Positions 1-16,686 are shown, numbered from the stretch's first letter. The stretch is 32,000 bases of DNA from Enterocloster bolteae (GCF_002234575.2 NZ_CP022464.2:3119944-3151943), one strand, 5' to 3'. Notes: generated from the letters alone by a model not told the origin. Program-made: numbers and translations.

Positions 1-1
1 A

Positions 2-355: not shown

Positions 356-357
356 AA

Positions 358-717: not shown

Positions 718-719
718 GA

Positions 720-1274
720 ATGGACAAAGAAAGCATTGTTTTAGGTAGCGGAGATTTGTATTGTACAGACTTCCAGGGAACAAACGAAGCAATCCCGGAT
801 GATGCGGCGATTGAAACAGAAGATAACCGCCTGGGGCATATTAAGGGCGGTGCGGAAATTGAGTATGCACCGGAGTTTTACGAAGCAAAAGACGATATGG
901 GTAAAGTTTCCAAAGTAATTATTACGGAAGAGGAAGCCACCCTTAAAAGCGGAATTATGACATGGTGCGGAACAACGCTTGAAAAGTTATGTCAGACCGC
1001 AAGAGTGACAGAAGATAAGGCAAAGGGAATTAGAACGGTCAAAATTGGCGGTATCGGAAACGCAACGGGTAAGAAATACCTTTTGCGATTTGTCCATAAA
1101 GATACCAAGGACGGAAATATCCGTGTAACGATTGTTGGTAATAACCAGGCCGGTTTTACGATTGCCTTTGCAAAGGATAGCGAAACCGTTATTGATGCAG
1201 AATTTAAAGCACAGCCTATGGACAAAGAGGGTACTTTAATCCTTTACACAGAGGATATTGACAAAACAGAGTAG
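720..1274 (+). CDS. major tail protein (siphovirus type)
   Basis: The ATG at 720 is preceded by GAGGAAA. The 184-aa acidic protein lies immediately upstream of the chaperone pair and the tape measure. The upstream ATG at 663 overlaps the previous gene and is less likely. Confidence 0.55.
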   Translation: MDKESIVLGSGDLYCTDFQGTNEAIPDDAAIETEDNRLGHIKGGAEIEYAPEFYEAKDDMGKVSKVIITEEEATLKSGIMTWCGTTLEKLCQTARVTEDKAKGIRTVKIGGIGNATGKKYLLRFVHKDTKDGNIRVTIVGNNQAGFTIAFAKDSETVIDAEFKAQPMDKEGTLILYTEDIDKTE

Positions 1275-1355
1275 CCAAAACACGGGCCAACGATAAGAAC
1301 GGGCGGCCGGTTGAAAAATCGAGCCGCCTTATTGCATGAAAGAGAGGAACACAAC

Positions 1356-1706
1356 ATGGCAGTAAAAGAATTTAACATGAACAAAATTAAACGTACCTTT
1401 TGGCCGTTTACTCTGAAAGATAAAAAGGATGAAAACGGAAATGTGGTTGAAAAGGGCAAAAAAATTATTGTCCGTATGCCGCAAAAGGGCGTTTTTGAAG
1501 CAATAAAGGATGTGGAAGCCAACGGAACGGGCGAGGATGCCGATACATCAACCATTTATAACCTTGTGGCAGCAGTATTAAACAACAATATGGGAAATGT
1601 GAAAGTTTCAGCCGAAGAGGTAGAGAGTTACGACATTGAAGAGTGTACGGCAATCCTTAACGCATACATGGAGTTTGTGGATGAATTAAAAGCAAACCCA
1701 AACTAA
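1356..1706 (+). CDS. tail assembly chaperone (gpG-like)
   Basis: The ATG at 1356 is preceded by AGAGAGGAA. It is the first of two small ORFs between the major tail and tape measure genes. Confidence 0.55.
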   Translation: MAVKEFNMNKIKRTFWPFTLKDKKDENGNVVEKGKKIIVRMPQKGVFEAIKDVEANGTGEDADTSTIYNLVAAVLNNNMGNVKVSAEEVESYDIEECTAILNAYMEFVDELKANPN

Positions 1707-1708
1707 AA

Positions 1709-1996
1709 ATGCCCTATTATCCACGCCAGGATAAAAAGGGCGAAATCCCGTATACAATCCTTACACGCCCGGAAAAATTGGTTATGGACTATTGCCATAT
1801 CAATATTTACGAAGTCCAGGAAATGGAAATAGATATTTACCTTTTCTTCTTACGGGAAGCAATGATTTTTGAAAATTCACAGACCGAAGAGGGACGGAAA
1901 TATTTAAAAGATTGCTTCCGTATGGAGCAGACAAAACCGGACCGTGAGGGATTAAGAGAAAGATTTGGAAAGAAAGGGGGAAAATCAAGTGGCTAA
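1709..1996 (+). CDS. tail assembly chaperone gpT-like segment (possibly made as a -1 frameshift fusion to 1356-1706)
   Basis: The ORF is in the -1 frame relative to the preceding chaperone. No Shine-Dalgarno sequence precedes its ATG. The frame is already open from 1685 and overlaps the last codons of the upstream gene. Confidence 0.45.
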   Translation: MPYYPRQDKKGEIPYTILTRPEKLVMDYCHINIYEVQEMEIDIYLFFLREAMIFENSQTEEGRKYLKDCFRMEQTKPDREGLRERFGKKGGKSSG

Positions 1997-4982
1997 CAAC
2001 ATTAAGGGTATTACTATTGAGATTGGCGGAGATACAACCAAGTTGCAAAATGCCTTAAAGGGTGTAAACGGGGACCTCAAAAGTACCAAGAATGAGTTAA
2101 AAGAGGTTGAAAAGGGCTTGAAATTAGACCCCAAGAATACCGAACTTTTAGCACAGAAACAACAGTTGCTTACAAAGGCAGTAGGCGAAACCAAAGATAA
2201 ATTAGATGTATTAAAAACGGCAGAAGCCCAGGTGGAGCAGCAGTTTAAAAACGGCGAAGCATCCGAGGAGCAGTACCGGGCAATCAAACGTGAAGTAATC
2301 GCAACGGAAGCAGAACTTAAAAACCTGGAAGAGCAAGCAAAGGCGAGTAATTCAACGCTTGCAAAGGTGGGGGATGCTTTTGGAACGGTAGGGGATAAGG
2401 CAACCAAAGCCGGGGAAAAGATGATGCCCGTAACGGCCGGAATAACCGCATTAGGAGCAGCCGGGGTTGCTGCATCTATGGAATTAGATAACGGCTATGA
2501 CACCATTATTACCAAGACGGGAGCAACCGGGGAAGCCCTGGAAAGCCTTACGACAGTAGCGGACAATGTATTTTCAGATATGCCAACTACAATGGATGAT
2601 GTGGGCGTAGCGGTTGGAGAAGTAAATACAAGGTTCGGGGCAACCGGGACAGAGTTAGAAAATCTTTCAAAAGAATTTATTAAATTTGCAAACATCAACG
2701 GAACGGATTTAAACACGGCTATTGATAGCGTGGACAGTATTATGACAAAATTCGGCGTTGATGCTTCACAGACAAAAAATGTGTTGGGGCTTATGACAAA
2801 AGCGGGCCAGGACACGGGTATTTCAATGGAAACATTGGAAACCGCACTTACAACCAACGGTGCAAGCCTTAAAGAAATGGGGCTTGATTTAACATCATCC
2901 GTTAATTTGCTTGCACAAATGGAAGCAAGCGGCGTTGATGTTTCAACCGCACTTGCCGGAATGAAAAAAGCGGTTCAGAACGCAACGGCAGACGGCAAGA
3001 GTGCAGACGAAGCATTGACCGAAACAATAGATAGCATTAAAAACGCAAAGACAGAAACGGAAGCCTTAACCATTGCATCCGACCTTTTCGGAAAGAAAGG
3101 TGCGGCGGAAATGACCCAGGCAATCCGTGAGGGGCGCTTATCCGTAGACGATTTAAGCGGTGCTTTATCAGACTATGGGGATGTGGTAAGTGACACATTT
3201 GAAACCACATTAGACCCGTGGGATGATGCAGCCGTAGCAATGAACAATTTGAAACTTGCCGGGGCAGACCTGGGAAGTTCCATTTTAACCACATTGCAGC
3301 CAACAATTGATAAGGTTGTGAACAAGGTAAAAGAGTTTACAACATGGTTTAAAAACCTGGACGACAACACAAAACAGATGATTGTAAAAATCGGAATGAT
3401 TGTTGCGGCTATCGGCCCGGCTTTAATCATATTTGGGAAAATGTCAACGGGAATATCCGGGGTAATAAAAACCGTAACGGGATTAACAAGCAAAATAGGC
3501 GGAATGAGTGGTGTTTTATCAGCACTCACGGGACCGGTTGGAATAGTGATTGCTATTATAGCGGCACTTGCCGCCGGGTTCATTGCTTTATATAAAACGA
3601 ATGATGAATTTAAAGAGAAAGTGGACGGGACCATAGGAAAGGTAAAGGATGCCTTTTCGCAGATGTGGACAACCATACAACCGCTTTTGGAGAGCCTAAA
3701 GCAAGCGTTTATTAACCTCATGGCTGCATTAAAACCCGTATTTGAATTTGTTCTTACATACATAGCAAGTATTGTAAATGGGGTTATCAATGCAGCAGCA
3801 CCGATAATTGCAGCAATCCAAAATGTGATTGATTTTGTTACCAATATCATAAATGCCATTATAGCGTTATTACATGGAGATTTTGACGGTTTCTTTTCGT
3901 ATCTGCAAGGTGCGTTTAATAGTGCAATATCGTTTGTAAAAAACATCATCCAGGCGGTTATAAATTTCATAATCGGATTTTTAGAGGGGTTCGGCGTAAA
4001 TGTAAAAACATTATTTACCAATATTTGGAATAGCATTGTTGCCGTATTCCAGGGCGTGGGTCAGTGGTTCAGTGACCGATTTACGGAAGCATGGAACGCA
4101 ATAACCACAATTTTTTCTGCAATCGGTTCATGGTTCGCCGCCAGGTGGAACGACATAAAAACCGCCCTTGCGACCGTGGCAACGTGGTTTCTTACCATGT
4201 TTACAAATGCCTATACGAATGTAACAAACGTATTCGCTACAATCGGTTCATGGTTCGCCGCAAGGTGGAACGATATAAAAACCGCCCTTGCAGCAGTAGC
4301 CACATGGTTTTTAACTATGTTCACAAACGCATACACCAACGTAACAAATGTATTTGCTGCAATTGGTTCATGGTTTGGGGCAAGGTGGACGGAGATAAAA
4401 ACCGCCCTTGCATCCGTTCCAACATGGTTTAAAACACAGTTTGATAACGCATGGACGAACATAAAAAACGCATTTGCCAATGTAACTTCCTTTTTCTCTG
4501 ATTTATGGGAGAAAATCAAGGGTTGTTTCGTAAATGTCGGTACGGCAATTGGTAGTGCGGTAAGTGATGCTTTTAAATCGGCAATCAACAGTTGCCTATC
4601 AACCATAGAGGGCGTTGTAAATAAGTTTATCGGTATGATTAACGGGGTAATTGGAATTATCAATGAGATACCGGGCGTTTCACTTTCAAAAATTGATACG
4701 CTTTCACTTCCGAGACTTGCAAAGGGCGGTGTATTAAGAGAGGGTACGGCAATGGTAGCAGAAGCCGGGCCGGAACTTTTAAGCATGGTAAACGGAAAAG
4801 CGGTTGTAACACCGCTTACGGGTTCAGCCGTAAACACGGCAGCAGACAACCTAAAGGGTAATAATGGCGGTTTCCACCAGGAAATCAATATTACAAGCCC
4901 TAAAGCCCTATCCCCTTATGAAGTGGCAAGACAAACGAGAATACAGACCCGTGCAATGGCTATTGCAATGCAGAGGGGGTAA
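1989..4982 (+). CDS. tail tape measure protein
   Basis: 997 aa counted from the GTG at 1989, which is preceded by AAGGGGGA. The N-terminus VANNIKGITIEIGGDT and a coiled-coil region are TMP-like. There is a central hydrophobic/TM block, W/F-periodic repeats, and the canonical position after the chaperones. Confidence 0.9.
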   Translation: MANNIKGITIEIGGDTTKLQNALKGVNGDLKSTKNELKEVEKGLKLDPKNTELLAQKQQLLTKAVGETKDKLDVLKTAEAQVEQQFKNGEASEEQYRAIKREVIATEAELKNLEEQAKASNSTLAKVGDAFGTVGDKATKAGEKMMPVTAGITALGAAGVAASMELDNGYDTIITKTGATGEALESLTTVADNVFSDMPTTMDDVGVAVGEVNTRFGATGTELENLSKEFIKFANINGTDLNTAIDSVDSIMTKFGVDASQTKNVLGLMTKAGQDTGISMETLETALTTNGASLKEMGLDLTSSVNLLAQMEASGVDVSTALAGMKKAVQNATADGKSADEALTETIDSIKNAKTETEALTIASDLFGKKGAAEMTQAIREGRLSVDDLSGALSDYGDVVSDTFETTLDPWDDAAVAMNNLKLAGADLGSSILTTLQPTIDKVVNKVKEFTTWFKNLDDNTKQMIVKIGMIVAAIGPALIIFGKMSTGISGVIKTVTGLTSKIGGMSGVLSALTGPVGIVIAIIAALAAGFIALYKTNDEFKEKVDGTIGKVKDAFSQMWTTIQPLLESLKQAFINLMAALKPVFEFVLTYIASIVNGVINAAAPIIAAIQNVIDFVTNIINAIIALLHGDFDGFFSYLQGAFNSAISFVKNIIQAVINFIIGFLEGFGVNVKTLFTNIWNSIVAVFQGVGQWFSDRFTEAWNAITTIFSAIGSWFAARWNDIKTALATVATWFLTMFTNAYTNVTNVFATIGSWFAARWNDIKTALAAVATWFLTMFTNAYTNVTNVFAAIGSWFGARWTEIKTALASVPTWFKTQFDNAWTNIKNAFANVTSFFSDLWEKIKGCFVNVGTAIGSAVSDAFKSAINSCLSTIEGVVNKFIGMINGVIGIINEIPGVSLSKIDTLSLPRLAKGGVLREGTAMVAEAGPELLSMVNGKAVVTPLTGSAVNTAADNLKGNNGGFHQEINITSPKALSPYEVARQTRIQTRAMAIAMQRG
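4121..4480 (+). repeat. three tandem 120-bp (40-aa) repeats inside the tape measure gene
   Basis: AATCGGTTCATGG at 4121 and 4241, and AATTGGTTCATGG at 4361. The repeated peptide is IGSWFAARWNDIKTALAxVATWFLTMFTNAYTNVTNVFA, and the third copy is more diverged. Confidence 0.85.
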
Positions 4983-4985
4983 ATT

Positions 4986-5939
4986 ATGGCAGATATTACA
5001 ATTACTTGTACAAATGATAAAAATGTTTCTATTACCTTTAGGTGGGATTGGGATAAAAGCCCATTCCACCTATTGGATGTAGAGGGAATTTATGGTTACA
5101 GTTGCAAGGTTACAACATCAGAAAATACTACCACGGACGGCAGCACATACCAGGGAAGCACGGCAGAGGAAAGAAACATTGTAATTACAACAGAGATTGA
5201 CGGGGATTACAAAAAGAACCGGGAATTATTATACAGAGTATTCCAAAAGGGCAGAACCGGAACGCTTGAATATAGCGAGGACGGGGATGTAAAAACTATC
5301 AATTACAAAGTAGAAAATGTATTGCCGGGAGCAATAACGGGCGTTGTGAGGGATTATACAATTAGTCTTAAATGTCCAGACCCATACTTTAAGGACCTGT
5401 CAGATGTGGAAGTGGTAATGGCAAGTTGGGTATCAGATTGGTACTTTGAAAACGGGTTTGATATTAACGGCGTGGAATTTGGACACCGGGAAGCCGAGTT
5501 GGTAAAAGAAATTGAGAATGACAACGGAGCGGACAATATCGGAATTACCGCAATATTCAAAGCAGACGGCATTGTAAAAAATCCGGCCATTTACCATTCA
5601 GAGAGTGGGAAATATACAAAGGTTGGTTATACCGGAAATGATTTTGAATTACAAAGCGGTCAATATGTGGTTATTTTCACACATACCGGAAAGAAAAATA
5701 TGTATCTTTTGGACGGTGTGAGCCAGGCGGAAATTGAGGAACACAAGGACCGTTACGGAATGATTGATTGGGACACGGTTGTTTCCATATACGGGACAAT
5801 CATAAACCAATATTATGACGAGGACGGGGAGTATATACAGTTGCAGGACGGCACAAACACCATTACATACAACGCAGAAAGCGGCATTAACTATTTATCC
5901 GTGTCAGTATATTACCGCATTTCATATTTGGGGGTGTAA
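4986..5939 (+). CDS. distal tail protein (Dit-like phage tail component)
   Basis: 317-aa ORF starting 4 nt after the TMP stop, which is the canonical Dit position. The assignment rests on synteny. Confidence 0.6.
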   Translation: MADITITCTNDKNVSITFRWDWDKSPFHLLDVEGIYGYSCKVTTSENTTTDGSTYQGSTAEERNIVITTEIDGDYKKNRELLYRVFQKGRTGTLEYSEDGDVKTINYKVENVLPGAITGVVRDYTISLKCPDPYFKDLSDVEVVMASWVSDWYFENGFDINGVEFGHREAELVKEIENDNGADNIGITAIFKADGIVKNPAIYHSESGKYTKVGYTGNDFELQSGQYVVIFTHTGKKNMYLLDGVSQAEIEEHKDRYGMIDWDTVVSIYGTIINQYYDEDGEYIQLQDGTNTITYNAESGINYLSVSVYYRISYLGV

Positions 5940-5943
5940 GAGC

Positions 5944-6990
5944 ATGGAAATTATTGTATATGACCGCAATTTGTACCGCCTGGGGACGATTGAAAACCAT
6001 ACATCCTTACAATGGCATAGAAAATATTACGAGTGTGGCACGTTTGAGTTACACGCCCCGGCAACAGAGGACAACATAAGGCTTTTGCAGCCGGGTAATG
6101 TAATAAGGCCAAAAGGAAAGGATGAAGCCGCCGTTATCCGTGGGGACCAGACGGAAGAGGAAAGCACCCTTGTAAATGAGATTGTGCGAAACGGCTATTT
6201 TCTGCCTATATATTTCAATGACAGATTGACCGGCCCCATGTTCACATTCAACGGAACGTGTGAAGATGCCATGCGCTTTATGATTAACCGTATGGCAGCA
6301 GTACCGTTATTGGAAGTAGCCCCAGGAATAGGGGATGCAACCAAAATAACATTCCAGGCAACCTATAAGAATGTTTTAACCTATCTTTCCAAGATTGCCC
6401 GGTATTGTGAATTGGGCTTTAGGGTAGTGCCGGACTTTAAGGGTAAGAAAATGACCTTTGAAACATACAAAGGCATAGACAGAACCACGAAGCAAGGCAC
6501 AAAGCCCCGTGTAATCTTTTCAGAGAGTTACAACAACCTAAACCGTGCAAAACATACCTATTCAGACGAAACCGCCAAAACAAAGATTGTTGTAGGTGGG
6601 GCCGGGGACGGTGCGGACCGTATTTATGTAACGGTTGGCGGCGGAACGGGGTTTGATTTACGGGAAGAGTTTTTGGATGCCAAAGACATAAACAAAGATG
6701 ATTTTTCAACCAATGCGGAATACCTGGAAGCGTTACGCATCCGGGGGGAGCAGTACAGAGCGGAAAACGCCGTGATTGAGAACATAGAAGCCGAAGTGGA
6801 AGCCGAGGTTAATTTTATCTATGGCACGGATTACGATTTAGGGGACATTGTGACAGTAGAAAAGGCGAAATGGAACAAAGTATTAAATTTACGTATTACG
6901 GAACTTTGCGAGGTTTACGAATACGGCGGAATGTATGTTGTTCCTACTTTTGGGGATGCCCTACCCACAACAATAAATTGGGACAATTAG
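5944..6990 (+). CDS. siphovirus Gp37-like tail protein (Tal position)
   Basis: ATG at 5944 after GGGGTG. The N-terminus MEIIVYDRNLYRLGTIENHTSLQWHRKYYECGTFELHAP resembles the Sipho_Gp37 family. It follows Dit. Confidence 0.55.
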   Translation: MEIIVYDRNLYRLGTIENHTSLQWHRKYYECGTFELHAPATEDNIRLLQPGNVIRPKGKDEAAVIRGDQTEEESTLVNEIVRNGYFLPIYFNDRLTGPMFTFNGTCEDAMRFMINRMAAVPLLEVAPGIGDATKITFQATYKNVLTYLSKIARYCELGFRVVPDFKGKKMTFETYKGIDRTTKQGTKPRVIFSESYNNLNRAKHTYSDETAKTKIVVGGAGDGADRIYVTVGGGTGFDLREEFLDAKDINKDDFSTNAEYLEALRIRGEQYRAENAVIENIEAEVEAEVNFIYGTDYDLGDIVTVEKAKWNKVLNLRITELCEVYEYGGMYVVPTFGDALPTTINWDN

Positions 6991-7009
6991 GAAAGGAGAG
7001 GAAAAGCAA

Positions 7010-8050
7010 ATGGCAGTAAGAGGATTTTTTTACAATTCCGTAAATAAAGACCGATTATACAACGGCCAGGATATGAACGAGGATAAAGCCCCGTTCTATA
7101 AAGAGGGCGTGGCGTATGGACATTTGCAAGTGACCGCAGACGGGGAAAGTATGGCGGTAAAGGTGGACGGCGGAAACCGTACCGGGTACGCATACATTAA
7201 CTTGCACACAATCCATAATACAACCGTCCTGGAATTACCCGTGAGCGGTTCAAACGGTACATTGCCAAGAATTGACCGTGTAATATTGCGGAATGATGAA
7301 ACAGAGCGAAAACCAAGCATTTTTATTTTAGAGGGGGCATATTCGAGTAATCCGCAGCCGCCGGAACTTACGAACAATGACACAATCCAGGAAAAATGTT
7401 TGGCGGAAATTTATGTGGCCGCTGGAGCGGTGGCAATATCCCAAAGTGATATTACAGACACCAGGGCAGACACGGGATTGTGCGGTTTCATTGCATCACA
7501 GTTTGAGGACTTTGATTTTTCACAGTTCACAAAGCAATTTAACGCATGGTTCGCCCTGGAAAAAAAGAGCATGGAACAAGACCATGCAAATTTCATTGAA
7601 GAATACGCCGAAATGACACAAGCATTTATGACGGACCAGGAAGCACAATGGAATAAGTGGTTTAAAGAGAAGCAAACGGAACTTTCCGGGGACATTGCCG
7701 GGAAACTGCAATTACAGATTGATGATGTAAAAGAAAAGGTTTACAACATTGCCTTTAAGGTTTACATCATTAGCACATTGGAGCAGATTACAAGCCCGGT
7801 AACGGTAAAACTCACAAACAAGACAACCGGGACCATGCAGACGGTTACAGTTACAAAAAGCCAAATGGGCTTTTATATCACAGAAGCCGGAGAATACACC
7901 GTGGAAGCGGATTTGGAAAGCGTTATGGTTACACCGAAAGCCTTTAAGGTTACAAACGATAATCTTATGACAACGCAGAATATTACATTGCGTGAGGGTT
8001 CAAACCTGGGCTATATCGGAAATTATATTGGTTCATTTATTGCACAATAA
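7010..8050 (+). CDS. putative tail fibre / baseplate-associated structural protein
   Basis: 346-aa ORF with an RBS (AGGAGAGGAAAAG), lying downstream of the Tal-like gene. I recognised no catalytic motif. Confidence 0.4.
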   Translation: MAVRGFFYNSVNKDRLYNGQDMNEDKAPFYKEGVAYGHLQVTADGESMAVKVDGGNRTGYAYINLHTIHNTTVLELPVSGSNGTLPRIDRVILRNDETERKPSIFILEGAYSSNPQPPELTNNDTIQEKCLAEIYVAAGAVAISQSDITDTRADTGLCGFIASQFEDFDFSQFTKQFNAWFALEKKSMEQDHANFIEEYAEMTQAFMTDQEAQWNKWFKEKQTELSGDIAGKLQLQIDDVKEKVYNIAFKVYIISTLEQITSPVTVKLTNKTTGTMQTVTVTKSQMGFYITEAGEYTVEADLESVMVTPKAFKVTNDNLMTTQNITLREGSNLGYIGNYIGSFIAQ

Positions 8051-8071
8051 AAAGAAAGAGAGGATTAAACA

Positions 8072-8566
8072 ATGGTAGGATTTCCAAAAGTAATTAAGAC
8101 AAAGGCGGATTTAGTCAACACTTACAAACTTGTAAAGAAAGGCAGATTGAAGAAAAAAGATTGGTTGGCAGCAGTTGAGAAGTTGGAAAATCAGAATTTC
8201 ATCTTTTGCCCTATCCTGGAGAAAACCGAGGATAGAAAGGGCGTTACACTTATGTTTGTAAACGAGGTTACAGAGGGGGACAAGGTAAAAGCCGGGAACG
8301 CGACCGCAACCGTTAAGACCGTGGAGCATATCGAGGTTGAAAAGGCAGCAGAAGCAGACCAGGAAGCGGCAGCAGTAGAGGGAACGGCGGCAGCAGATGC
8401 CGAAACAACCACAAATAACAATCAGACCAAGCACACAATTTTGACACTTTCAAAGGCTATTGCGGCGGATGCGGCTACAATCGGTATTCCGGCAGAAGTT
8501 ACATTTTATGACCGCCTGGGAATTACAGAAGAGGAAGTGGAGCAGATGAAAGGAGAGTTAGCATAA
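8072..8566 (+). CDS. hypothetical phage protein, translationally coupled to the DGR target gene
   Basis: 164-aa ORF with an RBS (AGAGAGGA). It has a central Ala/Glu/Thr-rich low-complexity linker. Its stop overlaps the next start (TAATG at 8564-8568). Confidence 0.4.
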   Translation: MVGFPKVIKTKADLVNTYKLVKKGRLKKKDWLAAVEKLENQNFIFCPILEKTEDRKGVTLMFVNEVTEGDKVKAGNATATVKTVEHIEVEKAAEADQEAAAVEGTAAADAETTTNNNQTKHTILTLSKAIAADAATIGIPAEVTFYDRLGITEEEVEQMKGELA

Positions 8567-9660
8567 TGGGAAGATTATTTGTTTATGACGAGAATATGAC
8601 GGACGAGAGGGCGAAAATCACAGTTGCTAAAATGGCCGCCGTATCGGACATTGTAGCGAGTGAAAAGGCGTTTATACAGTATTCCGCAGCCGGACAATTA
8701 ACCGTGCTTGCCGGGGCAGTTATTGCGGTAGGGGATGCCATTTTTCAGACCGAGGAAACAACGCTTTCAGCTGCCAACCTGGACGGTGCAAGCAGCTTTG
8801 CACACGGCAAAGATTATTACATTTACTTATGCAACAATGGCAAGGACAGTTCAAACGAGGTTTATTTAATCTCTGAAAATTCCACATTCCCGGACGGCGT
8901 GGAATGGGACGATACAAACACCCGTAAAATTGGCGGTTTCCACTATGGCTTTGTTAGAAATGTGGATGAATACGGCAGAGAAGTAAATACAAGTGGAAGT
9001 GTGCGTGGTAGCGGTTGGGAAAGTAACGTGCATGAGGACATTGCCCCTAACTCCGTATGGACCGCCTTACACCGTCCGAAGTGCGACCCGTCCGGTATGG
9101 CATACCTGGGGAATGGTTTGTGGGCTGATATTTACCTTGCATCAGATGATGGGGCGAACGGCTTACAATCTGTATATAATGCAACGCCTATTACGGGTAC
9201 AGAGGGTTTAAATTGGTATATTGCCAATGAAAAGGCTGCCCGTGTCGGAAAGCGTTTACCGGACCTTGCAGAGTGGTTAATTGCAGCAGAGGGAAGCCCC
9301 CAGGGATTAGACGGCAGCAATACAAACGGTTGGACCGCAACAACCAACACTGCAAGAACCGCCGTTGGAAAAATCAAAAATGCAATTTCTGTAAAAAACA
9401 TTATGGACATTGCCGGGAACGTGTGGGAATGGATTAACGAGTTGTGTTTAGACCCAACCGCTGCATCCTGGAATTGGTACAATGTTATGTCCGGCTACGG
9501 TCAAATTTATATGCCGTCACAAACAGCCTTGCACGCCCTCGTTGGCGGCGGCCATTGGGGCAGCGGCGTGCATTGCGGTAGCCGTGCCGTCGGTTGCAGC
9601 GATTACCCGTGGTACGTGACCGCGAGCATTGGTGTGCGGTGCGTGTGTGACAGTCTGTAA
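8566..9660 (+). CDS. DGR target protein: tail-module receptor-binding candidate with a C-terminal FGE-sulfatase/C-type-lectin-like fold carrying the VR
   Basis: The motif IAGNVWEWINE is the typical GNVWEW signature of FGE-sulfatase/CLec domains. The last 42 codons are the VR, which matches the TR downstream. The gene lies between the fibre-like genes and avd. Confidence 0.9.
   Translation: MGRLFVYDENMTDERAKITVAKMAAVSDIVASEKAFIQYSAAGQLTVLAGAVIAVGDAIFQTEETTLSAANLDGASSFAHGKDYYIYLCNNGKDSSNEVYLISENSTFPDGVEWDDTNTRKIGGFHYGFVRNVDEYGREVNTSGSVRGSGWESNVHEDIAPNSVWTALHRPKCDPSGMAYLGNGLWADIYLASDDGANGLQSVYNATPITGTEGLNWYIANEKAARVGKRLPDLAEWLIAAEGSPQGLDGSNTNGWTATTNTARTAVGKIKNAISVKNIMDIAGNVWEWINELCLDPTAASWNWYNVMSGYGQIYMPSQTALHALVGGGHWGSGVHCGSRAVGCSDYPWYVTASIGVRCVCDSL
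9525..9651 (+). repeat. DGR variable region (VR)
   Basis: 127 nt align without gaps to 10179-10305. There are 13 mismatches, and every one is at a TR adenine (10 A->G, 2 A->C, 1 A->T). Confidence 0.92.
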
Positions 9661-9667
9661 TCTGCCA

Positions 9668-9687
9668 GGGTGGGCGAAAGCCCACCC
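9668..9687 (+). promoter_or_regulatory. GC-rich hairpin (8-bp stem, GAAA loop) downstream of VR; candidate DGR target-recognition element
   Basis: GGGTGGGC-GAAA-GCCCACCC forms a perfect stem. It starts 16 nt after the VR/TR homology ends. No T-run follows, and no equivalent hairpin follows TR. Confidence 0.7.
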
Positions 9688-9719
9688 CATAGAAAAATAT
9701 ATAAACCGAGGATAAAAAC

Positions 9720-10109
9720 ATGGCAGAGAACAAGAAAAGCAATCAAGCGGATGCGTATATGGAGAGCATGAAAGCGTATCAAAAGACCTATGATTTTCTT
9801 TTATACCTTTATCCCATATTGTCACAGTTTCCGAAATTTGAGAAATTCGCATTGCAGAGCCAAATTAAAACGGCGGTTTTTGAAATGCTTAAATCAGTAA
9901 TCAGATTTAGAAAGACCGGGACAAAGAGCCATATATATAACGCAGATGTAGAGTTGCAGTTTATCAAAACCCTCATACGGCTTTCCTACGATTTGGAATA
10001 TCCGGCAATGAGCAAACACAGATACGAAGTATTGAGTAAGAAAATGACAGAATTAGGATGTATCATTGGCGGAATAATCGAAGCCGTAAAGAATGGAAAT
10101 TGGAAATAA
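9720..10109 (+). CDS. avd: accessory variability determinant (Avd-like four-helix-bundle protein)
   Basis: 129-aa basic helical protein with RBS GAGGA 7 nt upstream. The motif YQKTYDFLLYLYPILSQFPKFEKFALQSQI is typical of the four-helix-bundle (23S rRNA IVS-like)/bAvd family. It sits between the target gene and TR. Confidence 0.8.
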   Translation: MAENKKSNQADAYMESMKAYQKTYDFLLYLYPILSQFPKFEKFALQSQIKTAVFEMLKSVIRFRKTGTKSHIYNADVELQFIKTLIRLSYDLEYPAMSKHRYEVLSKKMTELGCIIGGIIEAVKNGNWK

Positions 10110-10178
10110 TGTTGGCATTGCCAATTTTATTTTGGGGAAACTGTTAATATGCACCGGGCCAGTTCACGGAACTTTCCG

Positions 10179-10305
10179 AGCCTTGCACGCCCTCATTGGC
10201 GGCGGCAATTGGAACAACGGCGTGCATTGCGGTAGCCGTGCCGTCAATTGCAACAATTACCCGTGGAACGTGAACACGAACATTGGTGTGCGGTGCGTGT
10301 GTGAC
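10179..10305 (+). repeat. DGR template repeat (TR)
   Basis: This is the invariant partner of VR. It contains 27 adenines, including nine AAY codons in the VR reading frame. The 3' 21 nt (10283-10303) contain no adenine. Confidence 0.92.
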
Positions 10306-10466
10306 TTTACAATTTTATAGACATAGAAGCCCAAGCGGCCACTAGCAAAGATTTACATTTTTTAAGTAAGTCAGACGGTTTGCCCGTTCCGGTGTGATAC
10401 CGGACAAACTAACAAAGCAAACCACCTTTTAGTAAAATAGAATATTTGAAAATTGGTAGGGATTAA

Positions 10467-11507
10467 ATGAAAACAGTAAAGGGACTACATGAGAAAATGG
10501 GGACCTTTGAAAATGCCAATACTTCATTCCACCAGGCGGCCAAGTGCAAGCGGTACACGGATGAGGTATTGGCTTTTTCTATGGTTAAGGAAGAGGAACT
10601 TTTAAGAGCAACCGAGGAAATACAGAATTTAACATATAGGCAAGGGGAATATAAGATATTTAAGGTGTTTGAGCCAAAAGAACGGCTTATTATGGCGTTG
10701 CCGTTCTATGATAGAGTGGTGCAACACATGATTTGTAACGCTATTCAACCCGTATTTGAGAACGGATTTTATTACCATTCTTACGCTTGCCGGACCGGTA
10801 AGGGGATGCACGCCGCAAGTGATACATTGTATCAATGGATGTATGAAACAGAGGTTAAACAAGGGTTAAGGATGTATGCCTTTAAAGGGGACATATCAAA
10901 GTATTTTGCATCTATACCACATGACAAATTAAAGGATGAAAACCGCCGCTATATAGGGGATAAGAAAGCCCTTATGTTAATGGACGATATTATAGACCAC
11001 AACGGCATATTGCCGGACGGCGTGGGAATACCCGTTGGAAACCTCACAAGTCAGTTATTTGCGAATGTGTACGGCAATAAGTTAGATAAATTTTGCAAGC
11101 ACGTTTTACATATTCCGTATTTTGTGCGGTACATGGATGATTTTATTATCCTATCGGATGATTTGGAGCAGTTGAAAGAATGGGTTAAGAGAATAGAAGA
11201 ATTTTTGGAAAATGAAATGCTTTTGCATATTAACCCTAAAAGCACAATCCTATACGCTGGGAATGGCATAGATTTTTGCGGATATATCCACTATGCAGAC
11301 CACAAGAAAGTAAGAAAATCATCTATCAGAAAGTTAAAGCAAGATGTAAAGGCGTATGAGTTGGGCGAATTGCCGCCGGAAGAATTTAACCGGAAGTACG
11401 AAAGCAGAAAGGGACATTTAGGACACGCCGACACATACCACATTGCAAAGGCGGTTGAATACGAATTGTTGTTCTATGAATGGGAACGCCTGGAAGCAGC
11501 GGCGTAA
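10467..11507 (+). CDS. DGR reverse transcriptase
   Basis: The motif VRYMDDFIILS is the YxDD catalytic motif. IPVGNLTSQLFANVY carries the xGNxxSQ signature characteristic of DGR RTs. The protein is 346 aa and lies directly downstream of TR. Confidence 0.9.
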   Translation: MKTVKGLHEKMGTFENANTSFHQAAKCKRYTDEVLAFSMVKEEELLRATEEIQNLTYRQGEYKIFKVFEPKERLIMALPFYDRVVQHMICNAIQPVFENGFYYHSYACRTGKGMHAASDTLYQWMYETEVKQGLRMYAFKGDISKYFASIPHDKLKDENRRYIGDKKALMLMDDIIDHNGILPDGVGIPVGNLTSQLFANVYGNKLDKFCKHVLHIPYFVRYMDDFIILSDDLEQLKEWVKRIEEFLENEMLLHINPKSTILYAGNGIDFCGYIHYADHKKVRKSSIRKLKQDVKAYELGELPPEEFNRKYESRKGHLGHADTYHIAKAVEYELLFYEWERLEAAA

Positions 11508-11577
11508 AAGGGTCAGAATAAAAAGCCGTTCCATTATATGATTTACTTGTAAAAAACAAGGAAAGGAGCATGGAACA

Positions 11578-12006
11578 ATGGAGAAAATGTTTAACTTTAT
11601 TTCCGTGATTGGTGGATTGGTTGGCGGTTTTATCGTTTCGTTGTTCGGCGGTTGGGATGTGATGTTATACACAATATTGCTTTTTGCTATCCTGGATTAT
11701 TTCACGGGCATTTTGAAAGCAGTCTATAAAAAAGAACTTTCAAGTGCAATCGGATTTAAGGGGATTGTAAAAAAAATCATGGTATTTGTGGTTATCGCAG
11801 TTGCCTACAACGTGCAGAGAATGACCGGGGACACAATACCATTAAGGGAAATTGTTATTGTTTTCTTTATCTGCAATGAAGCACTTTCTATTTTGGAAAA
11901 TGCGGCGGAATTTATCAACATACCGCAGCAGTTAAAAGATGTGCTTTTGCAGTTAAGGGACAAGAACGCAGCGAAAGCGGAAGAAAAAGAAGAAAGCGAG
12001 GAATAA
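11578..12006 (+). CDS. phage holin (holin_4 / toxin-secretion-lysis holin type)
   Basis: 142 aa with three hydrophobic segments and a charged C-terminal tail (KNAAKAEEKEESEE). It lies immediately upstream of the endolysin. Confidence 0.75.
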   Translation: MEKMFNFISVIGGLVGGFIVSLFGGWDVMLYTILLFAILDYFTGILKAVYKKELSSAIGFKGIVKKIMVFVVIAVAYNVQRMTGDTIPLREIVIVFFICNEALSILENAAEFINIPQQLKDVLLQLRDKNAAKAEEKEESEE

Positions 12007-12009
12007 GAC

Positions 12010-12954
12010 ATGGCAACAAAAGACCAGGTAAACGCCTTTATTGCGAAATTGGCAGCAATTGCAAGAAAAGAATATTTAACCCGTGATAAATGGGTTTTAC
12101 CGTCCGTATGTATCGCACAGGCAGCATTAGAAACCGGGTGGGGAACATCCGGGCTTATGACAAAAGCCAATGCGTTTTTTGGCATCAAGGCCGGCAGCAG
12201 TTGGAAAGGCAAGGTTTACAGTAGCAAAACAAACGAGTGCTATGACGGCAAGACCTACACGCAGATTACCGCCGCTTTCCGTGCTTATGATAGCCTGGAA
12301 GAGAGTGTGGCGGATTATTACAATCTGATTTGCGGAAGTTCCCGTTATGCCGGAGCGGTAAACAACGGAAACGCCGAAAGTGCCATTACCGCAATCAAAA
12401 ACGGCGGATATGCAACAAGTCCTACATACATCAAGAATGTAATGAACATCATCAATTCTTACAACCTTACACAGTATGACACATGGGACGGAGAGAACCA
12501 GGGACCGGCAAACAAGGAAACCCACGGTTACAAGGTGGGGGACAAGGTAAGAGTGATTGATAACATCACATACAACGGGGTGCGTTTCGCAACCTATTAT
12601 GATGAATATGATGTTATCCAGGTAAACGGGGACCGTGTTGTTATCGGTATCGGTAACACCGTGACGGCAGCAGTAAACGCCGCCAACATTGCAAAGGATG
12701 AAGAGATTGCAGAAGCCCCGGCGGATGCGGAAACACCAACCGACATTCCGACCCAGGAAGAAACAGAGAACGCCCACGGTTTCAAGGTAGGGCAGAAAGT
12801 AAAGGTTATCAATGCTTATGATTACTACGGTAATATGTTTAAGTGTTGGTACAGTAAATATGATGTTATCGAGGTTAAGAATGACAGAATTGTTATTGGT
12901 ATCGGTAGCACCGTAACGGCAGCAGTAAACGCCGCCAATTTAGCAGCAGCATAA
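12010..12954 (+). CDS. endolysin: N-terminal glucosaminidase (mannosyl-glycoprotein endo-beta-N-acetylglucosaminidase) domain plus two C-terminal SH3-like wall-binding repeats
   Basis: The motif AQAALETGWGTS is typical of the glucosaminidase/FlgJ-C family. Two ~57-aa repeats (HGYKVGDKVRVID... and HGFKVGQKVKVIN...) are encoded at nt 12523-12693 and 12775-12945. Confidence 0.85.
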   Translation: MATKDQVNAFIAKLAAIARKEYLTRDKWVLPSVCIAQAALETGWGTSGLMTKANAFFGIKAGSSWKGKVYSSKTNECYDGKTYTQITAAFRAYDSLEESVADYYNLICGSSRYAGAVNNGNAESAITAIKNGGYATSPTYIKNVMNIINSYNLTQYDTWDGENQGPANKETHGYKVGDKVRVIDNITYNGVRFATYYDEYDVIQVNGDRVVIGIGNTVTAAVNAANIAKDEEIAEAPADAETPTDIPTQEETENAHGFKVGQKVKVINAYDYYGNMFKCWYSKYDVIEVKNDRIVIGIGSTVTAAVNAANLAAA

Positions 12955-13017
12955 GCAACGCCGCCTTTAGGAATTTGGCTACCAAAAGAGCAAGGAAATA
13001 ATGTATATCACGGAATT

Positions 13018-13050
13018 AAAAGCACACCTTAAAAAGTGTGCTTTTTTCTT
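13018..13050 (+). terminator. rho-independent terminator after the lysis cassette
   Basis: Stem AGCACAC (13021-27) pairs with GTGTGCT (13036-42). An 8-nt loop separates them and a T-run follows. Confidence 0.7.
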
Positions 13051-13064
13051 TATTTTAAAAGATT

Positions 13065-13142
13065 TTTAAAATAGTACGGAATATGTGTTGACATAGTACG
13101 GAATATGTAATATAATAAAGACAGTTAAGAGAGGAACACAAA
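13065..13142 (+). promoter_or_regulatory. consensus sigma-70-type promoter P1 with two direct operator-like repeats (copy 1 of a 78-bp repeat)
   Basis: TTGACA (13088-93), a 17-bp spacer, then TATAAT (13111-16). ATAGTACGGAATATGT occurs at 13071-86 and 13093-108. Confidence 0.7.
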
Positions 13143-13160
13143 GAAAGTGAGGAAAAGAAA

Positions 13161-13322
13161 ATGTGGGAAGTAGTAAAAACAGTAAAGGGATATGATATAA
13201 CAAGAATGATTGGAAGCCGTGGTGCTTACCATGTATCAGTAAGAGAGGGAAAAGGCTTTAGAGAGTTCCACACATTCAAAACCATAAAGGCAGCGGTTGA
13301 GTTTATCGAAACTGCACTATAA
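13161..13322 (+). CDS. hypothetical small protein (53 aa)
   Basis: The ATG is preceded by GTGAGGAAAAG. This is the first ORF after P1. It is below the ORF-track length cutoff, and I translated it by hand (MWEVVKTVKGYDITRM...). Confidence 0.4.
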   Translation: MWEVVKTVKGYDITRMIGSRGAYHVSVREGKGFREFHTFKTIKAAVEFIETAL

Positions 13323-13362
13323 GCATTGAGCCGGGGCAAAGTCCCCGGCGGAAAGGGAAAAC

Positions 13363-13575
13363 ATGGATATTACAAAAGAATTAGCAAGAGCGGTAAAATA
13401 TTACATGATAATGGAAGATGTTTTTTTAAATCCGGGGAATTTTAAGGAAGCACATAAAAATTTTGTTGAAAAAATGGAAGAATACGAGAAAAAGGAAAAT
13501 TTAACGGAAGAGGAAGCACAATATAACATAGAAATGGCAGTAGAAGCATTGAAAAAATACAGGGCGGAACAATAG
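13363..13575 (+). CDS. hypothetical small acidic protein (70 aa)
   Basis: ORF with RBS AAAGGGAAAA. No family recognised. Confidence 0.45.
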   Translation: MDITKELARAVKYYMIMEDVFLNPGNFKEAHKNFVEKMEEYEKKENLTEEEAQYNIEMAVEALKKYRAEQ

Positions 13576-13907
13576 CCGCCCGGCAACTAAAACGGCCACA
13601 CCGTGAACGGGTGCGAGTGTCCCAAGCCACTATAAACCGTTGAGGGGTTGCAACAATAGGCGTTGCGGTACTGTCTGACAAGTTTTGACCCACGTTTTAA
13701 TGTGAAACGGGGAAGCAATGAGGAATACACCGGGCAAGGGTGCATTGCTTATATACACAATCGTTTAGACCAATGCCCGGAAACCCAAAACGCCTATATG
13801 ATGCAACTATATATTGAAACCCGTTGTTTCTGTGATTTTATCAATGGTAAATACACGCACTTTTAAGCCTGGCACATTCCGCCGGGCTTATTGCACATAA
13901 AAATAAA

Positions 13908-13985
13908 TTTAAAATAGTACGGAATATGTATTGACATAGTACGGAATATGTTATATAATAAAGACAGTTAAGGGAGATACACAAA
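13908..13985 (+). promoter_or_regulatory. promoter P2 (copy 2 of the 78-bp repeat)
   Basis: TTGACA (13931-36), a 17-bp spacer, then TATAAT (13954-59). ATAGTACGGAATATGT occurs at 13914-29 and 13936-51. About 5 mismatches to copy 1 at a fixed offset of 843 bp. Confidence 0.7.
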
Positions 13986-14023
13986 CTTAATGAGTAATGG
14001 GCAAGCATAGAAAGGAGAACTTT

Positions 14024-14164
14024 ATGGACGAGGATATGAACGTAGGCGAGTTACTTAAAGAAACGGCAGAAGAAAATCAGACCAGGAAAATACTTGAAAT
14101 CTTAAACGAGTGCAAGGACCTGGCAGAAGCCAAAGAAAGAGTAAAAGCCCTACTTAATAAGTAA
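14024..14164 (+). CDS. hypothetical small protein (46 aa)
   Basis: ATG after AAAGGAGAA. This is the first ORF after P2, translated by hand (MDEDMNVGELLKETAEEN...). Confidence 0.35.
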   Translation: MDEDMNVGELLKETAEENQTRKILEILNECKDLAEAKERVKALLNK

Positions 14165-14263
14165 GGCTTTAGGGAAACAGAAAGGGCGGTGGACTTGCCA
14201 AAGCCGCCCTAAACTGTAAAAAGTATTATACACCATTTGGCAAGAGAAAGGAAGAGGGCGTAA

Positions 14264-14479
14264 ATGCCAAAAATAAAAAAAGAGTTCGACCAAACGAAAT
14301 ATCAGAACGAATATAAAAAGAAAACCTACGACCGCATGGAATTACTTGTGCCAAAGGGAGAAAAAGCAGTAATAAAGGAAAAAGCGGCAGCAGCAGGGAC
14401 AAGTGTAAATGAGTTTGTGTATTCAGCGGTAAAAGAAAAAATGGAAGCAATGGAAGCGGCAACGGAAACAGAAGAGTAG
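14264..14479 (+). CDS. ribbon-helix-helix (Arc/CopG-like) DNA-binding protein
   Basis: 71 aa. The segment YDRMELLVPKGEKAVIKEKAAAAGTSVNEFVYSAV has a beta-strand / helix / helix pattern typical of RHH proteins. Confidence 0.5.
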   Translation: MPKIKKEFDQTKYQNEYKKKTYDRMELLVPKGEKAVIKEKAAAAGTSVNEFVYSAVKEKMEAMEAATETEE

Positions 14480-14504
14480 CACGGAAGAAAGCGAGGAACA
14501 CAAC

Positions 14505-15038
14505 ATGGGATTATTTAGTAACCTATTTTCTAAAAAGAACACGGCAGCAGTACAACCGCAGCCCGTACAGATGCCGGAAGAAAAAAAGCCAAGATACATT
14601 GTAAAAAGTCAACGGTTCATCCTGGATAATATAAAAGACCACATGGAAGATATTATGGACCTTGTGGAGAAAAACGAGGATTACAAGTTAAAAAAGAAAG
14701 ACCTTATAGAAGATGATAGGACGGATGAAAATATTTATGAATATGAATTGAACGAAAAAGCCACAATAACCCCTACATCTTGTGAGGGGGGGGGGGTGGA
14801 ACAACTACAAGTATTTGTGTGTAATACCCACATTGGAGATATTAAAAAAGGCGGCGTAAGCAAAGTAAAGAACCTTTTAAAGAAAGGAAATATAGAAAAT
14901 ATATGGTCCGAGGTTTCCGGCGGAAATTACAAAAGACTAAGGTATGATGCCGGGAAAGATGTATATTACTATGATGAATTAGAAAAAGAATTTAGTATTA
15001 CCATTGAAATAACCTATAAAGAGGAAATCACAGAATAA
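14505..15038 (+). CDS. hypothetical phage accessory protein containing a G11 homopolymer
   Basis: 177-aa ORF with RBS GAGGAACACAAC. No confident family, only a weak HIRAN-like impression for the C-terminal half. The G11 tract at 14786-14796 encodes E-GGG-V. Confidence 0.5.
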   Translation: MGLFSNLFSKKNTAAVQPQPVQMPEEKKPRYIVKSQRFILDNIKDHMEDIMDLVEKNEDYKLKKKDLIEDDRTDENIYEYELNEKATITPTSCEGGGVEQLQVFVCNTHIGDIKKGGVSKVKNLLKKGNIENIWSEVSGGNYKRLRYDAGKDVYYYDELEKEFSITIEITYKEEITE

Positions 15039-15086
15039 GGAAAGAAGCATAGGAAACAGACGGGGACAACAACGGATTATTCCGGG

Positions 15087-16202
15087 TTGTCCCTATTGCC
15101 GTATCAAGGGGGTTATTTTTATGGGTAGAAAATACAGACAGTTAAGCCAAAATGATAGAATATCAATGGAAACACTACTTAACAAAGGTCATTCCGTACA
15201 AGAGGTTGCGGATTATTTGCACGTTCACAGAAGCACCATTTACAGAGAAATGAAACGGGGCGAGTATGTACATAGAAATTCAGACTATACGGAAGAGGTG
15301 CGTTATAGTAGTGATAAGGGGCAGCAGACCCATGATTGGAACGCCCAGGGCAAAGGCAGAAACATTAAAATAGGCAATGATATTAAATTGGCGGAATACA
15401 TAGAAAATAAGATTGTGGAAAATAAATATAGCCCGGAAGCGGCGTTGGCAGCAGTAGCCACAAGCGGAATAGAATTTAGTACCACTATAAGCGTAAGAAC
15501 CCTATACCGCTATATTGATAACGGCATATTCCTTAAACTTACCAACAAGCATTTACCCGTTAAGGGCAAGAAGAAAAAGAAAAATAAGAAAGTCCAGGTG
15601 CAGAAGAGGGCAGCAGCCGGGGAGAGCATAGAGAACCGCCCGGATGAAGTGGCAACCCGTGAAACATTCGGACATTGGGAAATGGACACAGTAAAGGGCA
15701 AACAAGGCGTTACAAAATCATGTATGCTTGTATTAACAGAGAGAAAGACCAGGGACGAGATTATATTTAAACTGAAAGACCAAAAGGCGGAAAGCGTGGT
15801 GGATGCCATGGACCGTTTAGAAAGAAAATGGGGAGATATGTTTTCTAAAGTGTTTAGAAGCATCACGGTAGATAATGGCGTGGAGTTTTCGGATTGTAAG
15901 GGCATGGAGCGTTCAGCGTTGACACCAGGGGAGAAACGCACATATCTATTCTATTGCCACCCATACAGTAGTTGGGAGAGAGGGACCAACGAAAACACCA
16001 ACAAACTAATCCGCCGCCATATCCCTAAAGGGGAAGATTTTGACGAAAAGCAAGATAGGGACATTGAGTTTATAGAAAATTGGATAAACACATACCCACG
16101 GGGCATTTTCGGTTTCAAAACATCAGAAGAATTATTTAAAGAAGAGTTGGAGAAAATCACGGCATAATATTTTTTAAAAACTTGTCGCAAAACTATTGAC
16201 AA
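15087..16202 (+). mobile_element. IS30-family insertion sequence (ends tentative)
   Basis: It contains a single IS30-type transposase gene. The candidate imperfect inverted repeats are TTGTCCCTATTGCCGTATCAAG (15087-15108) and the reverse complement of 16181-16202 (TTGTCAATAGTTTTGCGACAAG), matching at 13/22 positions ungapped. The boundaries are uncertain. Confidence 0.5.
15121..16167 (+). CDS. IS30 family transposase
   Basis: N-terminal HTH (RISMETLLNKGHSVQEVADYLHVHRSTIYREMKRG). DDE-type core with HWEMDTV, ITVDNGVEF and PYSSWERGTNENTNKLIRR. Confidence 0.9.
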   Translation: MGRKYRQLSQNDRISMETLLNKGHSVQEVADYLHVHRSTIYREMKRGEYVHRNSDYTEEVRYSSDKGQQTHDWNAQGKGRNIKIGNDIKLAEYIENKIVENKYSPEAALAAVATSGIEFSTTISVRTLYRYIDNGIFLKLTNKHLPVKGKKKKKNKKVQVQKRAAAGESIENRPDEVATRETFGHWEMDTVKGKQGVTKSCMLVLTERKTRDEIIFKLKDQKAESVVDAMDRLERKWGDMFSKVFRSITVDNGVEFSDCKGMERSALTPGEKRTYLFYCHPYSSWERGTNENTNKLIRRHIPKGEDFDEKQDRDIEFIENWINTYPRGIFGFKTSEELFKEELEKITA

Positions 16203-16686
16203 AAAGAAGGTGGTTTGTATTTGCATCTATGTAAGTCACATAATCATAGTCATCCTGGGCCGCCATCTCCACCAGATGGGACCTCATTTCTGACTCAATC
16301 CGGCGGGCGAATAAAAGAAGCCTGTCACTGCTGCATCCGGAATGGGGACAGGTACTTAAATAAATTTCATGCCACTCGAACCCATAGGGCGCTCCGATAA
16401 AGCGGATTTCTATGCGTTTGTGCTTCCGGCCGCTTGCAAAAAAGCTGCGCAGGGATTCTGTACAGAAGAATTCATTCCATATGGCCTGGTCCGGACCATA
16501 TACATTATGCTCTGACAGCTCCCTCAGCGTTTGCTCCAAATCAAGGGTCTGCCCTGTGGTGGAGGGGAGGGTACGGTCCCTCCAGACATATACTTCCTCC
16601 TCCTTTAGACGGAGTTCCCAGATGGTATCAATGATACCATCTGTTGCATCAATATAATCATTTAGTGACAGACCGGTCGATTTCAT
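16174..16686 (-). pseudogene. 3'-truncated host gene (N-terminal sensor-like part of a probable signalling protein), ending inside or at the IS30 right end
   Basis: The host-like reading frame (MKSTGLSLNDYIDATDG...MAAQDDYDYVTYIDANT) runs into AT-rich IS-flank sequence. It terminates after about 12 unrelated codons (NHLLFVNSFATSF*). Confidence 0.4.

Follow-up and report, generated by a model that had tools for sequence, protein, structure and literature searches.

In this study, a 32,000-nt stretch of Enterocloster bolteae DNA (GCF_002234575.2 NZ_CP022464.2:3119944-3151943; hereafter the window, with positions counted from its first nucleotide) was analysed and found, with a high degree of confidence, to carry a complete diversity-generating retroelement (DGR) of the BPP-1 type on a siphovirus-like prophage. 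The gene for a phage tail protein ending in a variable repeat (VR), the accessory variability determinant gene (avd), the template repeat (TR) and the gene for a reverse transcriptase (RT) follow one another on one strand (Table 1), VR differs from TR at template adenines only, and among closely related loci VR is hypervariable whereas TR is constant.

A preliminary description of the window had proposed these four components in the order of Bordetella phage BPP-1 (mtd-avd-TR-brt), and all of them were located. The 364-aa target protein has the predicted GNVWEW motif (residues 284-289) and the C-terminal VR; the 129-aa Avd-like protein passes the NCBIfam cut-off for DGR Avd proteins; recomputing the direct repeat returned a TR of 127 nt; and the 346-aa RT contains YMDD and GNLTSQ at residues 222-225 and 191-196, respectively. 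The cassette lies, as was claimed, between fibre-like genes and the lysis genes, with tail genes upstream and the holin and endolysin genes downstream. Three outcomes had been named that would speak against a DGR: an RT placed with group II intron, retron or Abi RTs, a VR/TR alignment that fails, and a target without a C-type lectin (CLec) or Ig-like scaffold. The RT was closest to bRT, the RT of BPP-1, with the group II, retron and Drt models below their cut-offs; the alignment held, with adenine-only mismatches; and Pfam, PDB and Foldseek comparisons all placed a CLec/FGE fold at the C-terminus of the target.

Comparison of VR and TR

VR and TR were detected by a repeat finder as a 127-nt direct repeat with 90% identity, and the similarity ends abruptly at both repeat edges. 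Base-by-base comparison showed 13 mismatches, 13/13 of them at TR adenines; with 27 A in 127 nt, the probability of such a distribution by chance is (27/127)^13 = 1.8e-9. Within the 364-aa open reading frame (ORF), the mismatches were also confined (13/13) to first or second codon positions. No further TR-like copy was found on either strand of the 32-kb window.

Read in the frame of VR, TR specifies the peptide ALHALIGGGNWNNGVHCGSRAVNCNNYPWNVNTNIGVRCVCD. With 9 AAY codons and a further 8 codons containing adenine open to mutation, adenine randomisation could give up to ~2.5e15 protein variants, and stop codons are impossible. An ORF of 75 aa at 10093-10320, which ends in NIGVRCVCD like the target, is merely the TR read in the VR frame and does not merit annotation as a gene.

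Natural variation among related loci

Scans with the RT protein yielded 21 viral contigs and 2 genomes as relatives, and both repeats were present in 14 loci. Divergence was determined for nine loci (the window included) that were 98-99% identical and had equal VR-TR spacing, with the RT gene compared in frame. The mean pairwise divergence of VR was 11.3%, as opposed to 0.17% for TR, 0.48% for the avd region, 1.5% for the upstream 900 nt of the target gene and 1.3% for the RT gene. All nine VRs were distinct, and 94 of the 98 VR/TR mismatches in the set were at TR adenines. With every VR distinct and TR almost invariant in near-identical loci, these data indicate very recent activity in the lineage; mutagenic retrohoming, in which VR varies and TR stays constant, thus holds at the lineage level. 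Variation was observed at 22 of the 27 TR adenines, and the five invariant ones include scaffold codons (His, Ser and Asp), which is consistent with selection. More distant cassettes also had adenine-only mismatches (8/8 in L026 and 14/14 in L028).

A natural control is provided by L027, which has a tail module as in the window and a 55%-identical Mtd-like gene, without avd, TR or RT. At this locus (4001-5200), there is no TR copy, the GAAA hairpin described below is degraded, and the VR-like C-terminus, CGGCWGDGNHAGDRAVACRNYPTFARSITGVWCVCDSQ, is frozen; the cluster of its Mtd-like protein holds 18 distinct sequences only. To judge from these sequences, L027 looks like a case of DGR loss that froze the receptor-binding protein.

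Target protein

The target matched the Pfam families mtd_2nd (PF21916; 7.3e-30, 104 bits vs cut-off 24.6) and FGE-sulfatase (PF03781; 4.4e-11) and PHROG 11262, "tail protein" (1.5e-69), and aligned over residues 30-364 with the Mtd (major tropism determinant) structure 1yu4 in the PDB (E 3.8e-14). An AlphaFold (AF2) model built on 39 homologues had a pLDDT of 86 and a pTM of 0.86, with pLDDT < 50 only at residues 331-333, inside VR. When this model was submitted to Foldseek, five Mtd structures came first (E ~1e-21, best 8e-22; TM 0.69-0.73; ~370 columns), followed by the DGR variable protein TaqVP and then by FGE/EgtB folds.

Sequence and predicted fold alike make the target an Mtd homologue over its full length. 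Its domains and its tail-gene context both match the Mtd family of phage tail proteins, to which it can be assigned. VR aligns with the VR of Mtd position by position, and the variable residues are predicted to lie on the CLec scaffold.

Reverse transcriptase and Avd

Avd scored 93.8 bits against the cut-off of 80 for the NCBIfam equivalog NF033474 (DivGenRetAVD). It also matched Pfam bAvd (3e-25), PHROG 3206 and the PDB structure of bAvd (4dwl, E 4e-5), and the exact sequence is named "diversity-generating retroelement protein Avd" at NCBI.

Among PDB entries, the RT was most similar, over residues 6-328, to bRT of Bordetella phage as solved in complex with Avd (8ub7, E 2.8e-51), and the next matches were retron-type and group II RTs at ~1e-13 (6.7e-14 or weaker). 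The RT is 36% identical to bRT and matched PHROG 1423 at 3.9e-116. Its VGNLTSQ sequence at residues 190-196 fits the motif (L/I/V)GxxxSQ, which serves as a DGR hallmark (PMC3521204). Two residues of bRT, R74 and I181, have been shown to promote adenine mutagenesis (PMC7826257); they pair with R73 (conserved) and V190 of the window RT, respectively. Best match and motifs together suggest that this enzyme groups with the DGR RT bRT.

VR 3' end, hairpin and spacer

VR and TR have in common an adenine-free tract comprising the last ~21 nt (9629-9649), and the sequence that follows VR (9652-9667) differs from the flank of TR. This region was identical in all close relatives. By analogy to BPP-1 (PMC3240598), the VR 3' end would function as the initiation of mutagenic homing (IMH) sequence.

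A hairpin with an 8-bp GC stem and a GAAA loop begins 16 nt past the VR end. Hairpins with a GAAA or GGAA (GRAA) loop were present in the window and in 14/14 related loci having a VR/TR pair. In the two most diverged loci, the stem is longer by a compensatory pair (GTA...TAC in L020 and GTT...AAC in L021), and the hairpin was also found in L026 and L028. Retrohoming of BPP-1 requires a hairpin/cruciform (Guo et al., PMC3240598), and the rule for phage DGRs is a GC stem of 7-10 bp with a 4-nt GRNA loop, located 4-34 bp after VR (PMC3240598). The predicted structure at 9668-9687 fits this rule, which was defined by experiment.

The spacer between TR and RT was strongly conserved even in cassettes with an RT merely 75% identical to that of the window, and four conserved hairpins were predicted in it (Table 1). 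A T-run at 10364-10369 ranged from 4 to 6 T among otherwise near-identical relatives. In BPP-1, the spacer (Sp) folds back on TR and cDNA is primed from A56 of Sp (PMC6182149); a similar role in priming may be assigned to the window spacer by analogy. An Rfam scan of the whole window gave 0 matches, and hence neither an intron or retron RNA nor a curated family covering the TR/spacer.

Proposed mechanism and alternative explanations

On the model of BPP-1 biochemistry, the region avd-TR-spacer(-RT) would be transcribed, the structured spacer RNA would be bound by the RT-Avd complex, and TR would be copied to cDNA with misincorporation opposite template adenines. The cDNA would then take the place of VR in the 3' end of the gene for the Mtd-like tail protein, being targeted by the adenine-free 3' homology tract and by the GC hairpin with its GAAA loop just downstream. 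In the resulting protein, the scaffold residues would stay fixed and the variable residues would form the ligand-binding face of the CLec fold. The expected result is a changed phage receptor specificity, i.e., tropism switching; homology to BPP-1 and gene position suggest this role, and natural VR hypervariation among near-identical relatives strengthens it.

Several observations weigh against a complete and active DGR or limit the support for it. The promoter scan found fewer sites than in shuffled sequence and no promoter was assignable, while the scan for terminator-like patterns found 5 sites vs 4.3 expected by chance, so that the stem-loop at 10111-10125 is weak evidence; as neither scan performed better than on shuffled sequence, no transcription unit was assigned. 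The whole intergenic RNA from avd to RT folded no better than shuffled sequence (z = -1.5). In the RNAalifold consensus of the spacer, 9/35 pairs were kept through two-sided changes, a result which comes from only 6 cassettes and is suggestive. Four of the 98 VR/TR mismatches in the nine-locus set were off adenines. In a public protein collection, the 90%-identity clusters held 12,503 distinct sequences of the target, as compared with 4,022 of RT, 822 of Avd, and 2,183 and 1,846 of two upstream structural proteins (the former being the 346-aa protein), which points to diversification of the target but is confounded by protein length and cluster boundaries. Finally, the evidence for activity is drawn from related loci and applies to the lineage rather than to this particular lysogen.

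The last point leaves room for the cassette being a fossil, i.e., that VR was diversified formerly and is now frozen, the element being inactive in this prophage or strain. The support for activity stems from relatives rather than from within-strain data, and the related L027 lost the cassette and kept a frozen VR. The exact window VR also recurs on 203 contigs, although these are probably repeated assemblies of one strain and the count is uninformative either way. On the other hand, all ORFs are intact, as are YMDD, the equivalent of R74, TR, the 3' homology tract and the hairpin, and the distinct VRs of the nine near-identical loci speak for very recent lineage activity. A fossil cassette is therefore considered unlikely. 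Far less probable, to the point of being negligible, is that the repeat reflects an ordinary duplication or a tract of gene conversion and lies beside an unrelated group II intron, retron or defence RT. The top NCBIfam model for the RT is indeed group_II_RT_mat (TIGR04416), and several RT homologues of GenBank phages are labelled "retron-type" or "group II intron" RT. However, the score for this model, 113 bits, is far under the cut-off of 300, as are those for Drt3a (59 vs 200) and retron St85 (38 vs 235) under theirs, and bRT leads the PDB matches by nearly 40 orders of magnitude. With these scores and with no group II intron or retron RNA detected by Rfam in the window, an identity as group II intron, retron or Drt RT is effectively refuted. 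The 13/13 adenine-specific pattern, which recurs in every relative, is not what duplication and drift produce.

It was also considered whether the target is an enzyme, or a protein serving the bacterium rather than a receptor-binding protein of the virion. At NCBI, it is labelled "SUMF1/EgtB/PvdO family nonheme iron enzyme", and it has the Pfam FGE-sulfatase match and weak matches to EgtB and OvoA. The latter amount to 28 and 19 bits vs NCBIfam cut-offs of 360 and 400, and the target shares with the FGE/EgtB/OvoA enzymes the CLec/FGE fold only. In DGR variable proteins, the FGE subtype of CLec folds is known to occur without enzymatic activity (PMC5758913). Moreover, the target is homologous to Mtd over its whole length, the non-lectin second domain included, and is the last gene of a tail module (tape measure, Dit, Sipho_Gp37-like protein, etc.) that is conserved in many phage contigs. 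An enzymatic or bacterial function is thus very improbable, and the NCBI label should be corrected to phage receptor-binding protein.

Comparison with known DGRs

The window DGR and that of BPP-1 share gene order and strand, a target homologous to Mtd over its full length, homologous Avd proteins, and RTs with the identity given above. The two TR peptides align gap-free (GGNWNN..GSRA..N.NN.P.N.N.NIG.R.VC), and the 9 AAY codons of the window TR occupy 9 of BPP-1's 10 AAC positions in the stretch. In each element, VR is followed by a hairpin with an 8-bp GC stem and a GAAA loop, and the TR-RT spacers are of similar length (161 nt in the window vs 144 nt in BPP-1). They differ in that BPP-1 is a short-tailed, proteobacterial phage, whereas the window module is siphovirus-like, with a 1005-aa tape measure, and belongs to a host among the Gram-positive gut Clostridia. 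Also, a 69-nt gap with a small stem-loop separates avd and TR in the window, whereas BPP-1 has no gap; TR is 127 nt in the window vs 134 nt; I181 of bRT is replaced by valine; the target is ~25% identical to Mtd; and, unlike BPP-1, the window element is known from sequence alone.

Wu et al. (2018) defined as "category a" those Mtd-domain targets with CLec1 VRs, which made up 12/372 targets and were nearly all in phages (PMC5758913). The target in the window resembles them in having an Mtd domain, an Mtd-like size, phage genes on its flanks and a C-terminal VR in a CLec fold, and by these features the element appears to fall in this category (PMC5758913).

In a DNA-level search with positions 8000-12000, no match was found in GenBank phages, where the relatives are at the protein level only. 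The top GenBank-phage match to the target (38% identity) was in Chromohalobacter phage YPCBV-1, which has the same target-avd-TR-RT order and adenine-only VR/TR mismatches (14/14); its target is also labelled SUMF1/EgtB/PvdO. In contrast to the window prophage, YPCBV-1 is a phage of a proteobacterium, and its baseplate context is of the myovirus type. The closest GenBank-phage RT, 41% identical, was that of Clostridium phage Saumur. Prophage DGRs of gut Lachnospiraceae (L026, L028/L029) are syntenic with the window for tape measure, Dit, tail proteins, Mtd-like target, avd, TR, RT, holin and endolysin, and share the adenine-only mismatches and the hairpin with a GAAA loop. They differ from it in target sequence (51-73% identity) and in the lysis genes, having CHAP/CW_7 or Amidase_2 endolysins.

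Database records and novelty

The protein sequences of the target (with the exact VR), Avd, RT and two upstream genes are identical to ASN95740-ASN95744 of Enterocloster bolteae ATCC BAA-613. For Clostridium bolteae ATCC BAA-613, one DiGReF-positive DGR RT (GI 160938970) appears in Table S1A of Schillinger et al. (2012) and is the strain's sole entry. This GI number could not be mapped to the window RT; the window DGR has probably been catalogued before. The literature search found no paper describing the element in detail. Of the preliminary description's view that the DGR class is established and this element perhaps uncharacterised, the former stands, and the latter is weakened by the probable catalogue entry. 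The preliminary description had rated it the most unusual system of the window; the outcome is a standard BPP-1-type DGR in a type-strain genome.

The element is therefore known in kind: it is real, complete, active in its lineage and ordinary for its class. DGRs are established as a class, as are their mechanism and their part in phage tropism switching, and prophages of gut Firmicutes are known to be rich in them; the locus therefore adds no new principle. Its practical value is that a Gram-positive gut anaerobe, in a type strain that can be cultured, carries a BPP-1-type DGR that is clean, complete and naturally active. The target is Mtd-like and natural VR variants number in the thousands in public data, which makes the locus convenient as a model of host-range changes driven by DGRs in the gut.

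Prophage context

The target is the last tail gene ahead of the holin and endolysin genes. A gene for a tail completion protein lies upstream of the tape measure gene, and the order of the module recurs in related contigs. From 16.7 kb on, the genes are bacterial, encoding a GGDEF/EAL response regulator, a polysaccharide deacetylase, radical SAM enzymes and others.

Table 1. Features of the window, by position (aa, amino acids; nt, nucleotides)
Feature	Position	Strand	Remarks
Tape measure	1965-4982		1005 aa
Dit	4986-5939		
Minor tail protein	5815-6990		PHROG 538
Structural protein	7010-8050		346 aa; PHROG "head protein"/virion-structural matches
Protein without family match	8072-8566		164 aa
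Target gene, Mtd-like receptor-binding tail protein (predicted)	8566-9660	+	364 aa; Mtd second domain and C-terminal CLec/FGE-type fold
Variable repeat (VR)	9525-9651	+	127 nt; encodes target residues 320-362 of 364
IMH-like VR 3' end	9629-9667	+	Adenine-free G/T-rich tract, then sequence unlike the TR flank
Putative target-recognition hairpin/cruciform	9668-9687	+	GGGTGGGC-GAAA-GCCCACCC
avd, accessory variability determinant	9720-10109	+	129 aa; four-helix bundle
Small stem-loop and T-rich tract between avd and TR	10111-10125	+	From terminator-like pattern scan
Template repeat (TR)	10179-10305	+	127 nt; 27 adenines; 9 AAY codons in VR reading frame
Spacer (Sp-like), putative non-coding RNA region between TR and RT	10306-10466	+	161 nt
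Spacer hairpins, four, conserved	10324-10344, 10350-10372, 10374-10388, 10389-10403	+	
DGR reverse transcriptase (RT)	10467-11507	+	346 aa
Holin	11578-12006		
Glucosaminidase endolysin	12010-12954		
IS30-family transposase, outward-facing, prophage right end	15121-16167		NF033563, 239.5 bits vs cut-off 80

The right end of the prophage is marked by the IS30-family transposase gene. Positions 4466-16204 of the window are 97% identical in nucleotide sequence to positions 1-11737 of a prophage of Clostridiaceae bacterium Marseille-Q4145 (L001), which has a different VR and a different right flank: the similarity ends at 16204, ~40 nt past the stop codon of the transposase gene, and L001 runs 1.3 kb further. 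Similarity to the viral contig L019 also ends at 16204. In 11/30 related viral (IMG/VR) contigs, the IS30 gene is located at most 250 nt from the contig end. A search for terminal inverted repeats around the gene found weak 14-20-nt pairs only, none convincingly bracketing it.

IS30-bound prophages of gut Clostridia were described in 2025 as IScream phages; one end of such a prophage carries an IS30 transposase directed outwards, and the opposite end another IS30 that is often degraded (PMC12823448). In the same work, prophage DGRs are mentioned only as something that may contribute to a broad host range (PMC12823448). The window, which covers the right end only, resembles them in the outward-facing IS30 at that end. 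The L001 genome stands for a different GTDB species, and the Avd is labelled MULTISPECIES [Lachnospiraceae] at NCBI, which points to a single phage lineage that lysogenises several species or has several integration sites. It is conceivable, though rather doubtful, that the DGR sits in an IS30-mobilised prophage of the IScream class present in at least two GTDB species, and that diversification of the Mtd-like protein enables infection of several Lachnospiraceae species. If true, this would connect DGRs with the unusually broad lysogenic host range, a link so far missing.

The genes for the 164-aa and 346-aa proteins adjoin Mtd-like genes in all related cassettes, and the UniRef name of the latter is baseplate upper protein Ig-like domain protein. 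The two proteins may be the adaptor by which the Mtd-like protein is attached to the tail tip. The minor tail protein ORF as listed (start at 5815) overlaps the Dit gene by 125 nt, and in related contigs these genes are adjacent and non-overlapping; the true start is probably the internal Met at MEIIVYD, ~5941.

In the endolysin, the N-terminal glucosaminidase domain is followed by two similar C-terminal repeats of ~60 aa, HGYKVGDKVRVIDN...VVIGIGNTVTAAVNAANIA and HGFKVGQKVKVINA...IVIGIGSTVTAAVNAANLA. These repeats were seen by eye, had no significant Pfam match and were not listed by BLASTP self-comparison; they probably represent an undescribed cell-wall-binding repeat.

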